A stretch of DNA of 24,000 nucleotides from Actinomycetota bacterium (GCA_034666105.1 JAXDMK010000127.1:23839-47838), one strand, 5' to 3'. Counted from the stretch's first letter, positions 6,352 through 15,595 are shown. Notes: generated by a model from the sequence alone, not told the origin. Made by a program: numbers and translations.

Positions 6352-7530
6352 ATGTCATCGATGGCCACTCCCGAGCAGGCGACGGCGGCCCTGGCCGCGG
6401 TGAGCGAGGCCGTGCTGGGGGTGGCGGGCGACCTGTCGGTGGCCACCGTCCTCCAACGGCTGGCGGCCGCGGCCCAGGCCCTGGCCGACGCCCGCTACGC
6501 GGCCATCGGCGTCCCCGACGATGACGGCGACGGCTTCGCCCAGTTCATCCACGTGGGCATGAGCGACGAGCTGGTGGAGGCCATCGGGCCCCTGCCCAAG
6601 ACCCACGGCCTGCTCGGCTCGATGCTGCTCGACCCCATCCCCTACCGCACCGACGACGTGCGGGCCGACCCCCGGTTCAGCTGGTGGCCGGCGGCCCATC
6701 CCCGGATGCGGTCGTTCCTGGGCGTCCCCATCGTGTTCAAGGGCGACGTGGTGGGCGCCTTCTACCTGGCCGACAAGGAGGGCGGCGGCCGGTTCACCGA
6801 CGACGACGAGTCGCTCATCGGCCTGCTGGCGGCCCACGCCGCCATCGCCATCGAGAACGCCCGCCTCTACGAGAAGAGCCGGGAGCTGAGCATGGTGGAG
6901 GAACGGAACCGCATCGCCCTGGAGCTGCACGACGCCACTGCCCAGACCCTGTTCGGCATCCGCCTGGCGGCCGACACCGCCCTCGGCCTGCTGACCACCG
7001 ACCCCGACCGGGCCGCAGCCGAGCTGGCCACCGTCCGGGACCTGGCCGGCACCGCCGCCGGCGAGCTGCGCTCGTTGATCTTCGCCCTGCGCCCGCCCGC
7101 CCTCGACGCCGACGGGCTCCTGCCCGCCCTGGGCAAGCACCTCGATCTCCTCGGCCGCACCCACAAGCTGGCGGTCGCCCTCCACCCCCCGGGGGACGGG
7201 CTCGACGGGCTGCCGGCCGACGTCGAGGCCGACCTCTACCGGGTGGCCCAGGAGGCGCTCACCAACGTGGTCCGCCACGCGTCGGCCACGTCGGTGACAG
7301 TGACGGTCTCGGTGACCACGGGTCCCGACGGCACCCTCACCCTCACCGTCGCCGACGACGGGACCGGCTTCGACCCCGGCGCCCGCAGCATCCGGGCCCA
7401 CCGCCTCGGGCTGACGTCGATGGCGGTCCGCACCGCCCGCCACGGGGGGACGACCCGGGTGGAGTCGGCCCCCGGCCGGGGCACCACCGTCACCGCCGAG
7501 GTTCCCCGTTCGTGGATCCGGCAGCCGTGA
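6352..7530 (+). CDS. GAF-domain sensor histidine kinase (HisKA_3 / NarX-DegS class), cytoplasmic
   Basis: The N-terminal region of about 170 aa is GAF-like (YAAIGV...FLGVPIVFKGDVVGAFYLADK). The H-box is EERNRIALELHDATAQTLFGI. The ATPase motifs are QEALTNVVRHA (N), DDGTGFD (G1) and GLTSMAVRTARHGG (G2). I saw no TM segments. Confidence 0.9.
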   Translation: MSSMATPEQATAALAAVSEAVLGVAGDLSVATVLQRLAAAAQALADARYAAIGVPDDDGDGFAQFIHVGMSDELVEAIGPLPKTHGLLGSMLLDPIPYRTDDVRADPRFSWWPAAHPRMRSFLGVPIVFKGDVVGAFYLADKEGGGRFTDDDESLIGLLAAHAAIAIENARLYEKSRELSMVEERNRIALELHDATAQTLFGIRLAADTALGLLTTDPDRAAAELATVRDLAGTAAGELRSLIFALRPPALDADGLLPALGKHLDLLGRTHKLAVALHPPGDGLDGLPADVEADLYRVAQEALTNVVRHASATSVTVTVSVTTGPDGTLTLTVADDGTGFDPGARSIRAHRLGLTSMAVRTARHGGTTRVESAPGRGTTVTAEVPRSWIRQP

Positions 7531-8257: not shown

Positions 8258-9088
8258 ATGGGCTGCGGGCGGGTGCGGGGGTTGGTGATCACGGCCGGCC
8301 TGCTCGCCCTCGCCGGCTCGTGGGTGGCGTCGGCCCGGCTCGACGCCCGCTTCCGGAACCCGGACGGGATCCCCATCAGCCACCCCCGTCTCGAACCGGT
8401 GAGCGGGGTGTCGTTCGATTTCTTCACGTCCCGCAGCCCCGACGGCACCTTCTCGACGGTCCTCCGCCAGACGCTCTACGCCTCGCCGGCCGACGTCACG
8501 TTGCTCGTGGTCGACGCCGGCAGTGGCGACGTCGTCGGACGGTTCCCAAGTCCCCGGTCCGGTGGCCGGCTGGACGACATCGGCTGGCGGGACGCGAGCA
8601 CGCTCTGGGTCAGCGTCGTCGAGTTCCCCGCCACCTGCGTGGCCGCCGCCGTCGCATCCCCGCCGGCATGGGAATTCGTCCCCGACGACTGCGGGAACCG
8701 GCCCGCGGACGCGGGGGCGACCAGGCTGCCGCTCCGGGCGCCCTCGCCCGACGGACTCCTGACGGCCTCCGCCCGCGACGACCGTTCCGGACCCTGGGAT
8801 TTCGGGGATGGCGCCCCGCCGGTGCCCGACGTGCGCATCGACGACCGCGACGGCCGCTTCCTCGCCCAGCTGGGGAACCTCACGCTCGGGGGCTGGACGC
8901 GGGACGGGACGCTGATCGTCATCTCCGACTCGGACCGTCGCACCTACGCCATCTCCCGGGCCGAGATCGACCGGATCGTCGCCGGCGGGCCCCGGTGGAA
9001 GGGCCCGTCTAGGACTTTGGGCGGAGGCGGAAACCGGTCCGCCGCCCGATGCGCACCGGGGGCCTCGTCGGTCATCGTCGAGGCATGA
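8258..9088 (+). CDS. hypothetical exported/membrane-anchored protein (276 aa)
   Basis: The N-terminus MGCGRVRGLVITAGLLALAGSWVASA resembles a signal peptide or anchor. The body is rich in D/G/S/W with recurring SPDG/RDG turns (possibly a beta-propeller). The stop overlaps the SDR start (ATGA at 9085-9088). I recognise no family. Confidence 0.5.
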   Translation: MGCGRVRGLVITAGLLALAGSWVASARLDARFRNPDGIPISHPRLEPVSGVSFDFFTSRSPDGTFSTVLRQTLYASPADVTLLVVDAGSGDVVGRFPSPRSGGRLDDIGWRDASTLWVSVVEFPATCVAAAVASPPAWEFVPDDCGNRPADAGATRLPLRAPSPDGLLTASARDDRSGPWDFGDGAPPVPDVRIDDRDGRFLAQLGNLTLGGWTRDGTLIVISDSDRRTYAISRAEIDRIVAGGPRWKGPSRTLGGGGNRSAARCAPGASSVIVEA

Positions 9089-9831
9089 CAACCAACAACG
9101 GACACCAAACGGTCGCCCTCGTCACCGGCGCCTCCCGGGGCCTCGGCCTGGCCCTGGCCCGGGCCCTCGCCGCCGACGGGTGGGCCCTCGTGATCGACGC
9201 TCGCGGCGGCGCCGCGCTCCGGGCCGCGGCCCGTGAGCTCTCCGACGTCACCATCGTGCGGGCCGTGGCCGGCGACATCGCCGACGAGACCCACCGGCGG
9301 GACCTGATCAAGGCCGTCCACGACCTGGGCGGCCTCGACGCCATCGTCCACAACGCCAGCGTCCTCGGCCCCAGCCCCCAGCCGGCGCTGGCCGACTACC
9401 CCCTGGCCGTCCTCGAGTACGTCTACGCGGCCAACGTCTTCGGGCCCCTGCGCCTCACCCAACTGGCCCTCCCCGAGCTCCGGGCGGGCGCGGCCGTGGT
9501 CGCCATCACCTCCGACGCCGCCGTCGAGGCCTACGGCGGATGGGGCGGCTACGGGTCGTCGAAAGCGGCTTTGGAGCAGCTCACGAACATCCTCGCCTCC
9601 GAGAACCCCTACCTGCGGGTGTACCGGGTCGACCCCGGCGACATGAACACCCGACTCCAGGCCGAGGCCTTTCCCGGCGAGGACGTCTCCGACCGGCCGC
9701 CGCCCGAGGCCAGCGTGCCCGGGCTGATGCGCATCATCACCGGCACCCTCCCCGGCGGCCGCTACCAGGCCCGCGACCTGGCCCCGGTCACCGCGGCCGC
9801 GGCCCCGGTCGCGGTGGCGGCGACGGGATGA
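9085..9831 (+). CDS. short-chain dehydrogenase/reductase (classical SDR; sepiapterin-reductase-like by eye)
   Basis: The cofactor motif VTGASRGLG and the catalytic YGSSKAAL are present. I chose the start at the internal ATG 9085 (MTTNNGHQTVALVTG), which has GAGG upstream and an ATGA overlap with the preceding gene. Confidence 0.9.
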   Translation: MTTNNGHQTVALVTGASRGLGLALARALAADGWALVIDARGGAALRAAARELSDVTIVRAVAGDIADETHRRDLIKAVHDLGGLDAIVHNASVLGPSPQPALADYPLAVLEYVYAANVFGPLRLTQLALPELRAGAAVVAITSDAAVEAYGGWGGYGSSKAALEQLTNILASENPYLRVYRVDPGDMNTRLQAEAFPGEDVSDRPPPEASVPGLMRIITGTLPGGRYQARDLAPVTAAAAPVAVAATG

Positions 9832-10940
9832 CGGCCGTGCTCGCGGCTGCGCCTCCCCTGCCCGACCCGGCCGGCGCCGGCCTCCTCCCGGTCGACTTCG
9901 AGCTGCCCGCCGACCTCATCGCATCCGAGCCGGTGGAGTCGGGCGGCGGCGGCCGGGAGGATGCCCGCCTCATGGTCGCCCGCCGCTCCGCCACCACCTC
10001 CGACGCCGACCACCTCGTCCACACCACCTTTGCCCGTCTGGGCGATTTCCTCGACCCGGGCGACCTGCTGGTGGTCAACACGTCGGCCACCCTGCCCGCC
10101 GCCGTCCCCGCCGTCGGCCTCGACGACGGCCTGGTCGTCCACCTCTCGACCGAGCTCCCCGGCGGGCTGTGGCTGGTGGAGCTGCGCCGCCCGGTGGGCG
10201 CCGGCACCGAGCCCTTCTTCGACGGGGAGACCGGCCGCCGCATCTCGTTCCCCGGGGGCGGCGCCGTCGACCTTCTCGCCCCCTACCCCGCGGGCGGGCC
10301 GCCGGCGCGGCTGTGGTTCGCCGTCCTCCGGCTCCCGGCGCCCACCGTCGCCGCCTACCTGGGCCGTCACGGACGCCCCATCCGCTACGGCTACGTCCGC
10401 CGGCCCTTCCCCATCTCCGCCTACCAGACCGTGTTCGCCCGCGAACCGGGCAGCGCCGAGATGCCGAGCGCGGGCCGGCCCTTCACCACCGCCCTCGTCA
10501 CCGACCTCGTCAGCCGGGGCGTGGGTGTCAGCCCGATCGTGCTCCACACCGGCGTGTCGTCGGCCGAGCCGGGCGAGCTGCCCTACCCGGAACGGTTCCG
10601 GGTGCCGGCGGAGACGGCCGACCGGGTCAACGCCACCCGCCGGGCGGGCCACCGGGTGATCGCCGTCGGCACCACTGTCACCCGGGCCCTGGAGACGGCG
10701 GCCGACGAACGGGGACAGGTGCACCCGGCCGGCGGCTGGACCGAGCTGGTGATCACCCCCGAGCGGGGCACGAGGGTGGTCGACGGCCTCCTCACCGGCT
10801 GGCACCCCCCGGCCGGGTCCCACCTCCTGCTGGTGGAAGCGGTGGCGGGACGGGCGGCGGTGGAGCGGAGCTACGCGGCCGCGGTCGAGGAGCGCTACCG
10901 GTGGCACGAGTTCGGCGACGTGCATCTGGTGCTCCCGTAG
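9828..10940 (+). CDS. queA: S-adenosylmethionine:tRNA ribosyltransferase-isomerase (QueA) family protein
   Basis: The ATG at 9828 overlaps the SDR stop (ATGA). FELPADLIASEPVE...REDARLMV resembles the QueA N-terminus (Y-LP-x-LIAQ-P...SRLLV). GHRVIAVGTTVTRALE matches the conserved VGTT-x-R-x-LE segment. The length is 370 aa. Confidence 0.75.
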   Translation: MTAVLAAAPPLPDPAGAGLLPVDFELPADLIASEPVESGGGGREDARLMVARRSATTSDADHLVHTTFARLGDFLDPGDLLVVNTSATLPAAVPAVGLDDGLVVHLSTELPGGLWLVELRRPVGAGTEPFFDGETGRRISFPGGGAVDLLAPYPAGGPPARLWFAVLRLPAPTVAAYLGRHGRPIRYGYVRRPFPISAYQTVFAREPGSAEMPSAGRPFTTALVTDLVSRGVGVSPIVLHTGVSSAEPGELPYPERFRVPAETADRVNATRRAGHRVIAVGTTVTRALETAADERGQVHPAGGWTELVITPERGTRVVDGLLTGWHPPAGSHLLLVEAVAGRAAVERSYAAAVEERYRWHEFGDVHLVLP

Positions 10941-12206: not shown

Positions 12207-13193
12207 ATGACCGCACCGCCCCGACGTTCGATCCTGCTCACGACCATGCTGACGGTCCTCGCGCTCGTCGTGGGAGCCGTCGGTGCCGGCGCGGACGAGA
12301 TCGGTGACAAGCAGGCGGAGGCGGAGGCCGTGGCCGGACGGCTGGCCGACCAGGCCCGCGCCATCGTCGCCCTCGACAAGGAGCACCGGGCCGCGGAGGA
12401 CCGTCTGGGCCAGGTCCAGGTCGCCCTCGACCAGGCGCAGACGGAACTGGCGGGGGCGTCGACCCGCCAGGAAGAGGCCCGCCGGCTGCTCGTCGCCCAC
12501 GCCCAGGCCGCCTACGTGACCGGCGGGTCGATCTCCTTCGTCGGCAACCTGGCCAACGGGGCCGCGCCCGACGGCGTCGCCCGCAACACCTACATGCGCC
12601 TGGTGACGGGCGAGGACCGGCAGGCGGTGGGCCGTATGCGGGCGGCCCGGGAGGACCTCGAGATCCGCCGGACCCAGCTCGACGCCGCCCGCCGCAAGGC
12701 CGCCGACCAGGCCGACACCGTCAGCGGCGACCTGGAGGAGCTGCAGCACGCCATGACCGCCCAACGGGCCCAGGTGGCCAAGGTCGACGGCGAGTTGGCC
12801 ACCCTGGTGGTGGCCGAGCAGGCCCGGGCCGAGGAAGCCGCCCGCCAGGAGCGGGCGTTGCGGGACGCGGAGGCGGCGGCGGCCCGGGCCAAGGCCGTGC
12901 CGACCGCCGCCGCCGCCCCGTCGATCCTGGCCGCGGCCTCGACGCCGGCGCCGGGGCTGGCCCTGTCGATGGACGAGGCCTTCGCCTGCATCCGCCAGTT
13001 GGAGTCGGGGAACAACTACTCGGCGCCCGGCGGCGGCGCCTACCAGTTCCTGGACGCGACCTGGGGGTCCCTCGGCTACAGCGGATCGGCCCAGGACCAT
13101 CCCCCGACCGACCAGGACGACGGCGCCCACCGCCTCCAGGCCCGCAGCGGCTGGGGTCAGTGGACCACCGCTTCCCTCTGCGGCCTCATCTGA
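12207..13193 (+). CDS. secreted coiled-coil protein with C-terminal transglycosylase-like (Rpf/SLT-type) domain
   Basis: The signal peptide is MTAPPRRSILLTTMLTVLALVVGAVGAGA. About 200 aa of heptad-like A/E/R/Q-rich sequence resembles a CwlO-type coiled coil. The C-terminus ACIRQLESGNNYSAPGGGAYQFLDATWGSLGY...GWGQWTTASLCG resembles the C-x3-ESGGN...G-x-QF-x3-TW motif of transglycosylase-like muralytic domains. Confidence 0.75.
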   Translation: MTAPPRRSILLTTMLTVLALVVGAVGAGADEIGDKQAEAEAVAGRLADQARAIVALDKEHRAAEDRLGQVQVALDQAQTELAGASTRQEEARRLLVAHAQAAYVTGGSISFVGNLANGAAPDGVARNTYMRLVTGEDRQAVGRMRAAREDLEIRRTQLDAARRKAADQADTVSGDLEELQHAMTAQRAQVAKVDGELATLVVAEQARAEEAARQERALRDAEAAAARAKAVPTAAAAPSILAAASTPAPGLALSMDEAFACIRQLESGNNYSAPGGGAYQFLDATWGSLGYSGSAQDHPPTDQDDGAHRLQARSGWGQWTTASLCGLI

Positions 13194-13210
13194 GCGCCCA
13201 CCCCCGAACC

Positions 13211-13480
13211 GGTGACGGTTGGCGCCCGGTGGGGGCTGTAGGCGTCACCAGTTCGCCGACGGAGCCGCCGCCATGGCAACTGGTGACAGTTGGCGCCCGG
13301 TGGGGGCTGTAGGCGTCACCAGTTCGCCGACGGAGCCGCCGCCATGGCAACCGGTGACACTTAGCGCCCGGTGGGGGCTGTAGACGTCACCAGTTCGCCG
13401 ACGGAGCCGCCGCCATGGCAACCGGTGACACTTAGCGCCCGGTGAGGGCTGTAGGCGTCACCAGTTCGCCGACGGAGCCG
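13211..13480. repeat. tandem array, about 3.8 copies of a 71-bp hairpin-forming unit
   Basis: Units start at 13211, 13282, 13353 and 13424. The consensus is GGTGACRSTTRGCGCCCGGTGRGGGCTGTAGRCGTCACCAGTTCGCCGACGGAGCCGCCGCCATGGCAACY. Copies differ only at unit positions 7, 8, 11, 22, 32 and 71. The last copy diverges after 13480. Each unit contains GGCAACYGGTGAC / GTCACCAGTTCGCC inverted arms. Confidence 0.95.
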
Positions 13481-13495
13481 GTGGCCGGCGCCCGG

Positions 13496-13753
13496 TTAGC
13501 CGTTGTGCTTGGCCCGGCCGGTCCGCCAGACGAGCAGACGGTCGACGAGGGCGCCGAGGACGGCGGTGATGGCGAGGACGCCGATGAGGGGCGCTCTCAC
13601 ATCGCCGACGACGTAGCCGATCCGCACCGACTGCCCGTTGTCGAGCAGCAGGGCCAGCAACACGATCACCGTCACCGCCAGCCCCACGATGCGGGCCGTC
13701 TCCCGGTTGTCCCTCGGCTTGTCGGCTTCCGCCACGAGGCGAACGTAGCCCAA
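13496..13753 (-). CDS. small membrane protein, LapA-domain/DUF1049-like (85 aa)
   Basis: Two hydrophobic helices (IVGLAVTVIVLLALLL, LIGVLAITAVLGALV) are separated by NGQSVRIGYVVG, as in LapA-domain proteins. The track start at 13753 is a TTG, and an in-frame GTG at 13735 is an alternative. Confidence 0.55.
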   Translation of the reverse strand: MGYVRLVAEADKPRDNRETARIVGLAVTVIVLLALLLDNGQSVRIGYVVGDVRAPLIGVLAITAVLGALVDRLLVWRTGRAKHNG

Positions 13754-13802
13754 CCCGACCGAGGGTCAGACGGACGGTTTGTCGTCCCCTCGTCCCGGGG
13801 TT

Positions 13803-14339
13803 TTACGTCCCACCGTGCCCGGTCATCCCTACCACCACCGCCACCTTCGACAGGCGACCGAGGGCGGGATGGCGGACGCACGCCAGGAACAGGCACAGCG
13901 CCGACTGGGCCAGCACCGCCGGGGCCAGGGCGGGCGACGGCCCCACGGCCCCGCTGGCCGCCGCCCACCACCGGGCGGGGGCCGACATGGCGGGCCACCG
14001 GGTGGCGTAGGCGAAGTCGAGCGGAGCCACGCGGTAGTTGGCCAGGACGTGTTCGTAGGTGCCGAAGGCGGCCACCAGGACCAGGCCGAGGGCCACCCAC
14101 CGCACGGCGCGGATGGTGCGGGCCGCGGGACGAACGGCCATGAGGACGACGGCCACCGCGGTGACGGCCACCGCCGCCCACGGGACCAGCTGCACGGTTG
14201 AGTCCCAGTGGCGGAGGGCGGCCAGCTCGAGGGCGGTGCCGGCGGTGCCCAGGCCGGCCAGCAGGAGCAGGCCCTGGCGCAGGGGCCGGGCGGGGTCGGC
14301 GAAGTCGGCCGCCGCCGTTGGAGGGTCCGGCCGGGTCAC
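13803..14339 (-). CDS. hypothetical 4-TM membrane protein (178 aa)
   Basis: This is the C-terminal part of track ORF 13803..15392. The GTG start at 14339 overlaps the stop of the upstream lipoprotein gene (GTGA). Four hydrophobic segments are present (LLLLAGLGTAGTAL, VPWAAVAVTAVAVVLMAV, WVALGLVLVAAFG, LAPAVLAQSALCLFLACV). I recognise no family. Confidence 0.6.
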   Translation of the reverse strand: MTRPDPPTAAADFADPARPLRQGLLLLAGLGTAGTALELAALRHWDSTVQLVPWAAVAVTAVAVVLMAVRPAARTIRAVRWVALGLVLVAAFGTYEHVLANYRVAPLDFAYATRWPAMSAPARWWAAASGAVGPSPALAPAVLAQSALCLFLACVRHPALGRLSKVAVVVGMTGHGGT

Positions 14340-14755
14340 GGGACGAGGGTGGCGACGATCTGGTCGACCACGCCCGGTCCCGGGTTGTACTTGGCCAGTT
14401 CCTGGCGCAGCTTGGCGAACGTCGGGTCGTCGGCGACGTAGGGCCGGTACTCCTCGACCTCCCTCGCCCACTGGGCGGGGCTGGAGATGCCGGCGGCGGT
14501 GAAGGCGGCCTGCAGCTCGGCCCGGGTGGCGTCGTTGGCCGACACCTTCCCGGCCGCGGACGGGGCGGCAGTGGTGGTCGGGGGGACGACGGTCGTGGCC
14601 GGGACAGTCGGGACGGGTGCGGCAGCCGTCGTGGCGGTGGTGGCGGCGCCGGCGGCCGCGGTCGACGGCGTGCCGCTCCCGCCCCCGCCGCAGGCGACGA
14701 GGGACAGAGCCGCGGCCAGACCCAGGCCGGCCAGGCGGGCAGTGGTGATACGCAT
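14336..14755 (-). CDS. lipoprotein with Thr/Ala/Pro linker and small helical (possibly helix-hairpin-helix-like) C-terminal domain
   Basis: I chose the ATG at 14755 (MRITTARLAGLGLAAALSLVACGG), which has a GGAGG RBS 5 nt upstream and a lipobox (LVAC). The linker is T/A/P-rich. The C-terminus NDATRAELQAAFTAAGISSPAQWAREVEEYRPY resembles ComEA/PsbU-type HhH segments, but this assignment is weak. Confidence 0.65.
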   Translation of the reverse strand: MRITTARLAGLGLAAALSLVACGGGGSGTPSTAAAGAATTATTAAAPVPTVPATTVVPPTTTAAPSAAGKVSANDATRAELQAAFTAAGISSPAQWAREVEEYRPYVADDPTFAKLRQELAKYNPGPGVVDQIVATLVP

Positions 14756-14833
14756 CGATTCCTCCGGATGGTGGGGGGTGTCCACTCCACTCTCGGGTCC
14801 CTACCTGGGAGGTACCTGGACGCCCGGTGGGAG

Positions 14834-15595
14834 TTACCCGGAAGCGAGAAGGGCCGCCGCCACCTGACGGTACAGGCCGGTCAGGGCGTGGTCGGGCTGG
14901 CGCACGGCGAGGATGCCGGCGCTGCCCAGCTCCAGGAGGTCGTCCGAGTGGGGTAGCACCGCCGCCACCTCGCACCCGTAGGTGGTGGCCACCTTGGCCC
15001 GCACCTCCTCGGCGTCGTAGCCGGCCGGCGTGTTGTTCACCACCAGCGTGATCCGGGGCACCTTGAGCCGGCGGGCGACGGTGAGGGTGACGTGGGTGCC
15101 CTCGAAGTCCTGCTGGTCGGGCCGGAGGACGATCGCCAGCGAGTTGCACATGGCGATCGACAGGAGCGTCTCCTCCACCAGCCCGGGGTGGGTGTCGAGG
15201 AGGAGGACGTCGAGGGAGAGGGTCTGGATGAGCGACCGGACGCCCTCGTTGAGCACGCCGACGTCGTAGCCCTCCCGCATGACCCGGGCGATGTCGTGGG
15301 CCCGGATGCTCGACGGCACCAGCCACACCTTGCCGCCGGCGGCGGCCGCCGTCCCGGGGGTGACGTCGTGGGCCGCGTCGACCATCGTGCACTGGCCCCA
15401 GAGGTAGTGGTTGAGGGACTGGCCCATGGTGTCCTGGTCGAGGCCGAACAGGATGTGGATGCCGGGCGACTGGATATCGGTGTCGACCACGCCCACCCGC
15501 TTGCCGTCGGCGGCCAGGAGGGCGGCCACATTGGCGGTGGTGTTCGACTTCCCCGTCCCACCCCGGAACGAGTGGACGGCGATCAGGATGGCCAT
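14834..15595 (-). CDS. MinD/ParA-family P-loop ATPase (SIMIBI class)
   Basis: The deviant Walker A is HSFRGGTGKSN, with Arg where MinD/ParA have the signature Lys. Switch/Asp motifs are VGVVDTDIQSPGIH and DVLLLDTHPG. The length is 253 aa. GGGAGGA lies upstream of the ATG at 15595. Confidence 0.85.
   Translation of the reverse strand: MAILIAVHSFRGGTGKSNTTANVAALLAADGKRVGVVDTDIQSPGIHILFGLDQDTMGQSLNHYLWGQCTMVDAAHDVTPGTAAAAGGKVWLVPSSIRAHDIARVMREGYDVGVLNEGVRSLIQTLSLDVLLLDTHPGLVEETLLSIAMCNSLAIVLRPDQQDFEGTHVTLTVARRLKVPRITLVVNNTPAGYDAEEVRAKVATTYGCEVAAVLPHSDDLLELGSAGILAVRQPDHALTGLYRQVAAALLASG

Follow-up and report, generated by a model that had tools for sequence, protein, structure and literature searches.

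The gap between the stop codons of two convergent genes in the window (the whole 24-kb stretch of DNA that was analysed) is occupied by an array of hairpins, which is probably a dispersed REP-like extragenic palindrome that was amplified locally into a cluster, with an inferred role as a 3'-end hairpin barrier. Its identity as a dispersed palindromic repeat, amplified locally and variable in copy number, is well supported. The function of a bidirectional 3'-end hairpin barrier or attenuator is plausible by analogy with the REP clusters of E. coli. The best reading of the elements is a new REP/BIME-like family, not a new kind of RNA. REP-type repeats have been studied mostly in Proteobacteria, and to our knowledge, according to literature searches, REP-like repeats have not been described in the Acidimicrobiia lineage.

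The array is the only long-period one in the 24 kb. Tandem Repeats Finder placed it at 13207-13480 with a period of 71, 3.9 copies, 96% matches and a score of 492. The units lie head-to-tail, and the 71-nt register was also obtained in a separate search for direct and inverted repeats, which paired, for example, the arms 13205-13217 and 13243-13255. A 39-nt hairpin probe matched the array four times, with no matches expected from shuffles, and had no match elsewhere in the 24-kb window, the GC content of which is 73%. Four tandem 71-bp units in a convergent gap, as described in the earlier note, were thus confirmed by Tandem Repeats Finder, the repeat search and the probe; the unit starts given there (13211, 13282, 13353 and 13424) and the variable unit positions (7, 8, 11, 22, 32 and 71) proved exact, and the stems GGCAACYGGTGAC / GTCACCAGTTCGCC with the constant 17-nt linker GACGGAGCCGCCGCCAT between them are present. 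The partial arm noted at 13205-13210 does exist, but it belongs to a complete first hairpin as its outer arm (Table 1). Past 13480, the linker after hairpin 4 diverges from the repeat.

A coding repeat was ruled out by the period of 71, which is not a multiple of three, together with stop codons in all six frames, in keeping with the earlier observation that no frame stays open across the array. A mini-ORF in the window linker (MATGDT-stop, preceded as GGAG-N8-ATG) was also rejected, being not conserved and missing from the orthologous array of locus L040. No promoter-like site or U-tract terminator was found in the array (terminator scan of 13200-13500; tails GUUCGCC...), and the tRNA search found none.

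Table 1. Coordinates of the array, its parts and the two flanking genes in the window
Feature	Coordinates	Strand	Description
Upstream convergent gene	12207-13193	+	328 aa, C-terminal transglycosylase-like domain (PF06737, E=2e-7)
Whole array	13205-13480		Four 47-nt palindromes with three identical 24-nt linkers between their cores; a fourth linker begins
Hairpin 1	13205-13255		CGAACCGGTGAC-N27-GTCACCAGTTCG; core 13207-13253; MFE -31.3 (+) / -31.1 (-) kcal/mol
Linker	13254-13277; again 13325-13348, 13396-13419		CGCCGACGGAGCCGCCGCCATGGC; locus-specific sequence
Hairpin 2	13275-13328		GGCAACTGGTGAC...GTCACCAGTTCGCC; core 13278-13324; MFE -33.7 / -30.4 kcal/mol
Hairpin 3	13346-13399		Core 13349-13395; MFE -28.7 / -30.9 kcal/mol
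Hairpin 4	13417-13470		Core 13420-13466; MFE -32.2 / -33.6 kcal/mol
Downstream convergent gene	13496-13753	-	85-aa membrane protein; LapA_dom (PF06305, E=4.5e-4; weak, under the curated cutoff)

The TGA stop codon of the 328-aa gene (13191-13193) lies 11 nt ahead of hairpin 1; the protein is identical in the related contigs L001 and L002. The stop codon of the 85-aa gene (13496-13498) lies 25 nt past the last extended stem and 29 nt past the last 47-nt core. For this LapA-like protein, 27 homologues were found. In the relatives L041-L045 (positions ~8700-10000), the LapA-like gene directly follows a 425-aa NDH-2-type (Pyr_redox_2) gene, instead of which the window (13757-15392) and L001 carry two small genes without annotated function. 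No tblastn match to the NDH-2 protein was obtained in the window or in L001.

On both strands, a single unit folds at -29 to -34 kcal/mol (z = -2.3 to -5.6), forming an outer stem of 10-13 bp, two internal loops of 6-7 nt and, at the tip, a 5-nt loop closed by a 4-bp apical stem (GCCC/GGGC). The interior of 27 nt had been described as a loop, G-rich on one strand and C-rich on the other. However, it contains the apical stem with its small loop and the internal loops beside it, so that the G-run and the C-run are mostly paired. The outer stem of hairpin 2 is a perfect 10 bp (T variant), and at stem position 4 of hairpin 3 a C.A mismatch on the + strand corresponds to a G.U pair on the - strand. 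Folding of the whole array gave z = -6.1 for the - strand versus -3.3 for the + strand.

The inverted arms are paired in 91.8% of the cells, compared with 22-45% in a control with the partners slid. Covariation in a reduced model was not above that of column shuffles and is uninformative because the stems barely vary. A full-length 23-bp helix was rejected, since its covariation did not exceed the shuffles and its middle 7x7 region is only ~45% paired. Variants of the apical stem keep the pairing: besides GCCC/GGGC, there are three independent compensatory versions, GCCG/CGGC, GCCA/TGGC and CGGTCG/CGACCG. The hairpin is supported by the conservation of the inverted repeat, by these compensatory apical stems and by thermodynamics, and the data fit an RNA hairpin, a DNA cruciform or a single-strand hairpin alike. 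At the tandem loci, no bias between transcribed and antisense folding was seen (10 versus 8 hairpins; mean difference -0.16 kcal/mol), nor any strand bias of G.U versus C.A at the Y.R pair. With no folding advantage of the sense strand, selection at the RNA level is not demonstrated.

The unit proved to be dispersed, the outcome which the earlier note had itself set against the idea of a special, unique RNA locus. The 47-nt core, AACYGGTGAC-N27-GTCACCRGTT, was found at at least 13 independent intergenic sites on contigs with a GC content of 0.67-0.75, including those of an Acidimicrobiia MAG. Its terminal arms of 10-12 bp, (CG)AACYGGTGAC...GTCACCRGTT(CG), are near-invariant and often extended to CGAAC...GTTCG. 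In a species-level genome collection, a 21-mer of the unit matched one genome, an uncultured Acidimicrobiia MAG, on two contigs: L003 with 3.7 copies of a 73-nt unit and a degenerate fifth copy, and L004 with two copies 71 nt apart. The hairpin is common to the window, L003 and L004, while the linkers differ from locus to locus.

Metagenomes were searched with a structural pattern made only of GGTGAC, GCCC, GGGCTG and GTCACC. This returned 34 loci, and in ten of them the match was preceded by AACY and followed by RGTT, neither being part of the pattern. Nine of the ten lie on contigs of 0.71-0.75 GC and the tenth, L026, on a contig of 0.67 GC. The remaining 24 loci, on lower-GC contigs and devoid of these extensions, were discarded as chance or coding matches. 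The appearance of the unsought extensions in ten loci identifies the 47-nt palindrome as the unit of the family. Two metagenomes contained 4-6 family loci each, and at least three loci belong to a single MAG or close relatives of it.

The covariance model R1, built from 31 distinct copies, scored the array in the window at 73.7-75.4 bits on the + strand and 42.7-50.2 bits on the - strand; in general, one strand scores best for every unit of an array. The model added a fourth copy in L023 and a degenerate copy in L003 to the family, as well as copies with a wholly different interior, GTTTTCGGTCG-CCAGGA-CGACCGTTCGT, which still forms a 6-bp apical stem. The loop sequences vary across the family (GGTG, TCTCA, CGGGA, TGTGG, CCAGGA). 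A scan with R1 of the window and ~165 kb of locus flanks for a second family locus revealed none except at L026. With one extra site in these ~165 kb, the density of the family looks low, which suggests an abundance of roughly tens of copies per genome at most. Neither the search of viral contigs with the arm pattern nor the plasmid search yielded a match, and a phage or plasmid origin was rejected on these grounds.

Multi-copy arrays arose independently at 11 of the 16 loci, with periods of 61, 71-73 or 83 nt and with the units head-to-tail within each array. The linkers measure 14 nt in L005, L016, L018, L026, L028 and L040, 24-26 nt in the window, L003 and L004, and 36 nt in L009; those of L023 (13-18 nt) are an exception to this clustering. 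Linker length is apparently quantised in steps of ~10-11 nt across loci with unrelated linker sequences. This clustering could stem from a fixed duplication register or from helical phasing that suits a DNA-binding partner, or it could be due to small numbers. A dimer as the mobile unit was considered and rejected, as the first and second hairpins of the 61-nt doublets showed no consistent types.

Contig L018 also contains a second tandem hairpin array of a different sequence (6462-7034; 7.9 x 73 nt), composed of the hairpin GAGCARGTGGC...GGTCCC-TCTGA-GGGACT...GGCACTTGSTC and a 22-nt linker. This array, in contrast to the main family, folds far better on one strand (-26 versus -15 kcal/mol), which hints at a role at the RNA level. 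Its presence suggests that ladders of hairpins arise repeatedly in these genomes.

The orthologous convergent gap was located in seven other contigs by means of the LapA-like homologues, with the protein of the window as the reference for identities. No hairpin is present in L043, L044 and L045 (LapA-like identity 70-74%), where the gap is as short as 27 nt in L044 and 13 nt in L045. L042 (74%) contains one copy with the apical stem GCCG/CGGC, and L041 (80%) one copy with a degenerate interior. Three copies with a 61-nt period are found in L040 (87%), four with a 71-nt period in the window, and 6.9 copies, one of them with a 19-nt variant linker, in L001 (99%), the flanking DNA of which is 99.9% identical to that of the window. 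The arrays of the window and L001 differ only in internal units. Across the species compared at this site, the arms are unchanged except at the Y/R position, while the interior and the flanks have diverged. In the hairpin-free gap of L043 (10240-10330), there is an unrelated short direct duplication, GAGACATCATCTGGGGCYTCA x2, which includes the end of the transglycosylase gene; the gene caller stretched the LapA-like ORF to 132 aa across it.

In the lineages of both L040 and the window, the linker is a fusion of two flank pieces, the start of the right one followed by the end of the left one, which is the signature of simple tandem duplication of the hairpin together with its flank. Likewise, the first half of the window linker corresponds to the flank 3' of the single hairpin in L042, and the array is thus a local tandem duplication of hairpin plus flank. 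Since the two lineages have different junctions, with periods of 61 and 71 nt, amplification took place at least twice. The suggestion of recent amplification made from the window alone was borne out by these two independent duplications and by the difference of four versus seven copies between nearly identical flanks. No target-site duplication was seen when filled and empty orthologous sites were compared. As read from the sequences, the history of the site points to an insertion, which would have been followed by repeated local tandem duplication to give a site of variable copy number (1, 1, 3, 4 and 7 copies).

The neighbouring ORFs were called by GC3, with a Pfam check for ten of them. 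The elements adjoin housekeeping genes that are unrelated to one another, namely those for urease gamma and alpha, a luciferase-like oxidoreductase, LigD phosphoesterase, Fpg/Nei, an alpha-amylase, an AlkZ-like glycosylase and a BTAD regulator. In 15 of the 16 placements, the element or array starts 0-24 nt past a stop codon. Five independent loci lie in convergent gaps, seven in tandem gaps and one (L026) in a divergent gap; these 13 loci are too few for the scarcity of divergent gaps to be more than a trend. The slightly asymmetric interior is oriented 3:3 relative to transcription. In L004 (2982-2984) and L018 (11984-11986), the upstream gene takes its stop codon from the TGA within the conserved arm GGTGAC, so the insertion has remodelled the 3' end of that gene.

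A family array of 4-5 copies is found in the urease cluster of L003 (988-1327), between ureA (669-977) and the urease alpha ORF. Complete termination here would deprive the urease alpha gene of transcription, so that the array cannot be an efficient terminator at this position; the elements are thus tolerated or used in intercistronic positions. At L026 (24-1133), an AbiEi_4 + DUF559/MTES_1575 restriction-endonuclease-like gene (78-1001, - strand) is bracketed by family hairpins at 24-70 and 1026-1072/1087-1133, just upstream of the uvrB start. This AbiEi/DUF559-type gene may have been inserted into a hairpin array or carried along with the hairpins.

Of the four roles proposed earlier for the array, that of a REP/BIME-like element agreed with the results, as the unit belongs to a dispersed intergenic hairpin family. 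In E. coli, REPs form clusters of 1-12 palindromic units, ~60% of which are convergent, 40% tandem and 1% divergent; where they separate convergent genes, both genes tend to be more highly expressed, and REP325, which has 12 hairpins and is the nearest functional model for the family, acts as a partly Rho-dependent attenuator and a stabiliser of the upstream mRNA (bioRxiv 10.64898/2026.03.23.713779). The family shares with the REP/BIME elements of E. coli short, GC-rich imperfect palindromes at many extragenic sites, regular spacing, a copy number variable between strains, a bias towards convergent and tandem gaps with divergent ones rare, occurrence also within operons, and hairpins on either transcript with no U-tract. 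There are also differences. The unit is 47 nt long versus 20-40 nt for REP; the units are head-to-tail, whereas BIME units alternate in orientation; the linkers are locus-specific, whereas those of BIMEs come from a small set of motifs; and the host is an actinobacterial lineage, Acidimicrobiia. REPs typically exceed 100 copies per genome (PMC2817692) and bear a terminal unpaired tag, GTAG or CGTC (PMC3733652), while in the family copy density is apparently low and no such unpaired tag is present. GTAG and CGTC do occur inside the copies of the window (CTGTAGGCGTCACC), but these positions vary in the family (GTAC, GTCA and GTTT; TGTC), and the bases outside the arms are not conserved.

Published definitions of REPs include a GT(A/G)G or CGTC tag, alternating BIME orientation and a RAYT flanked by REPs (PMC2817692, PMC3733652). 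Similar to the REPIN/RAYT systems of Pseudomonas, Stenotrophomonas and others, the family is a dispersed palindrome with conserved termini and a freer interior, present or absent between relatives, with no target-site duplication seen. Unlike them, it has no GT(A/G)G head, its mobile unit is not an inverted REP doublet, and no RAYT was detected in the available sequence: a tblastn search with E. coli RayT against 428 kb of locus sequence gave a best E of 0.49, which is a weak negative, and the Y1 transposase PF01797 was absent from the gene tables of seven loci. No other candidate mobilising gene was found in the 428 kb and the annotated neighbours. Two surveys of REP and RAYT make no mention of Actinobacteria; a full-text literature search for REP and RAYT in Actinobacteria gave nothing, and neither did searches for REP-like repeats in that group or in Acidimicrobiia.

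Mycobacterial MIRU-VNTRs also have an actinobacterial host and tandem intergenic units of 40-100 bp (family periods being 61-83 nt) at several loci, some of them in operons, with copy numbers that differ between close strains (here four versus seven). In contrast to them, only the hairpin and not the whole unit is common to the loci, there is no small ORF through the units, and the strong palindrome is the defining feature. Bidirectional intrinsic terminators resemble the elements in that a GC-rich hairpin lies 11-29 nt past both stop codons and folds on both strands. The proposal of a bidirectional terminator stack is only partly tenable: the hairpins are strong on both strands, but neither strand has a U-tract, and an array is located inside the urease cluster, between co-transcribed genes. 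The elements also differ from such terminators in being multimerised and in recurring with the same sequence at loci that are unrelated. A CRISPR array was rejected, as the spacers within the array are identical or nearly so and the CRISPR-DR matches were below the threshold (16-20 bits versus 42).

If the palindrome is a REP-like element, the first copy would have reached the site by insertion or a transposition-like event, and the copy number would then shift by slippage or unequal recombination between units. Transcription from either convergent gene into the gap would allow each unit to fold into a hairpin of about -30 kcal/mol. The resulting ladder could serve as a 3'-end barrier to 3'-5' exonucleases, as in the REP/BIME clusters of E. 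coli, and as a partial brake, independent of a U-tract, on transcription running on into the opposing gene rather than a clean intrinsic terminator.

The main alternative, possible though unlikely, is that the repeat is purely selfish or neutral. As a small mobile palindrome, it would settle in permissive gaps behind genes and expand there by slippage, with no host function at this site. This reading agrees with the presence or absence of the element among relatives and the range of 1-7 copies at one site, with the missing strand bias of folding and informative covariation, and with the random (3:3) orientation relative to transcription; a place behind a stop codon may be no more than a spot that tolerates insertions. 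However, invariance of the arms against a diverged interior and flanks needs selection or continuing recognition or conversion, and this alternative also has to accommodate the independent multi-copy arrays at 11 of the 16 loci and an element that provides stop codons and whose presence in an operon is tolerated. The invariant arms could instead be accounted for at the level of DNA, if AACYGGTGAC/GTCACCRGTT were bound by a nucleoid protein, topoisomerase or recombinase and the tandem copies provided cooperative phased binding. Conservation of the arm sequence and not just of its pairing, equivalence of the two strands, and the clustering of linkers of differing sequence at 14, 24-26 and 36 nt, in steps of about one helical turn, are in line with such binding. 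It is nonetheless quite improbable, because no candidate protein gene recurs beside the elements in the annotated neighbourhoods, the loci are few, the 13-18-nt linkers of L023 break the phasing, and an apical stem kept despite replacement of its sequence speaks for an extruded hairpin rather than a plain duplex site. A related scenario, also improbable, combines mobility and recognition: the family would be a mobile hairpin specific for Acidimicrobiia, with its own non-RAYT partner that reads the AACYGGTGAC arms and lays head-to-tail copies at the 14/24-26/36-nt registers. If this were true, hypervariable hairpin ladders in 3' UTRs and intercistronic gaps would tune the expression of neighbouring genes from strain to strain, and the second array of L018 (8 x 73 nt) would be a sister system.

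A discrete multi-hairpin small RNA or a sponge of the 6C/B11 type derived from a 3' UTR is highly improbable; the earlier note had listed a 3' UTR-derived sponge among the possible roles and the 6C/B11 class as an analogy only. The regular string of stable hairpins on both strands, with the - strand folding somewhat better overall, would suit such an RNA, and the 6C RNA (RF01066) likewise has an actinobacterial host, GC-rich hairpins and a C-run on one strand. Yet the 6C RNA consists of two hairpins with conserved single-stranded C-rich loops, while here the C-run takes part in base pairing and loop sequences differ among family members; a promoter-like site is lacking, and orthologous sites bear from zero to seven copies. 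The Rfam check, including RF01066, returned nothing at E<=10 for 12800-13900 and nothing at the gathering threshold for the window, with only sub-threshold noise (Prion_pknot, CRISPR-DR20, mir-598). The chance that the repeat was falsely expanded or collapsed in assembly is next to negligible. Short-read contigs from another sample (SRR24887482) do end inside the first and last unit (L002:2086-2132; L039:1362-1383), and the window and L001 differ only by internal units, as a collapse would look. Against an artefact, the array was found in independent assemblies, its units carry distinct SNPs in a fixed order, and orthologous (three copies) and paralogous (4-5 copies) arrays are located in contigs of 0.2-1 Mb. 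The existence of the array is therefore safe; given the contig breaks inside units and the 6.9 copies of L001, the copy number in the window is provisional, and only its exact value is uncertain, as it would be in any assembly from short reads.

The REP-like family described here opens no new mechanism and answers no long-standing question. It is a well-delimited family in an uncultured actinobacterial class that shows the habits of REPs, namely location behind stop codons, tandem clusters and rapid change of copy number, and it extends the known range of REP-type elements. For annotation and assembly, it calls for caution, as contigs break at the arrays and gene callers run ORFs through them. 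For these soil Acidimicrobiia, the arrays provide a practical strain marker (VNTR), and the orthologous series from an empty site through one, three and four to seven copies is a rare natural time-course of the growth of a cluster.
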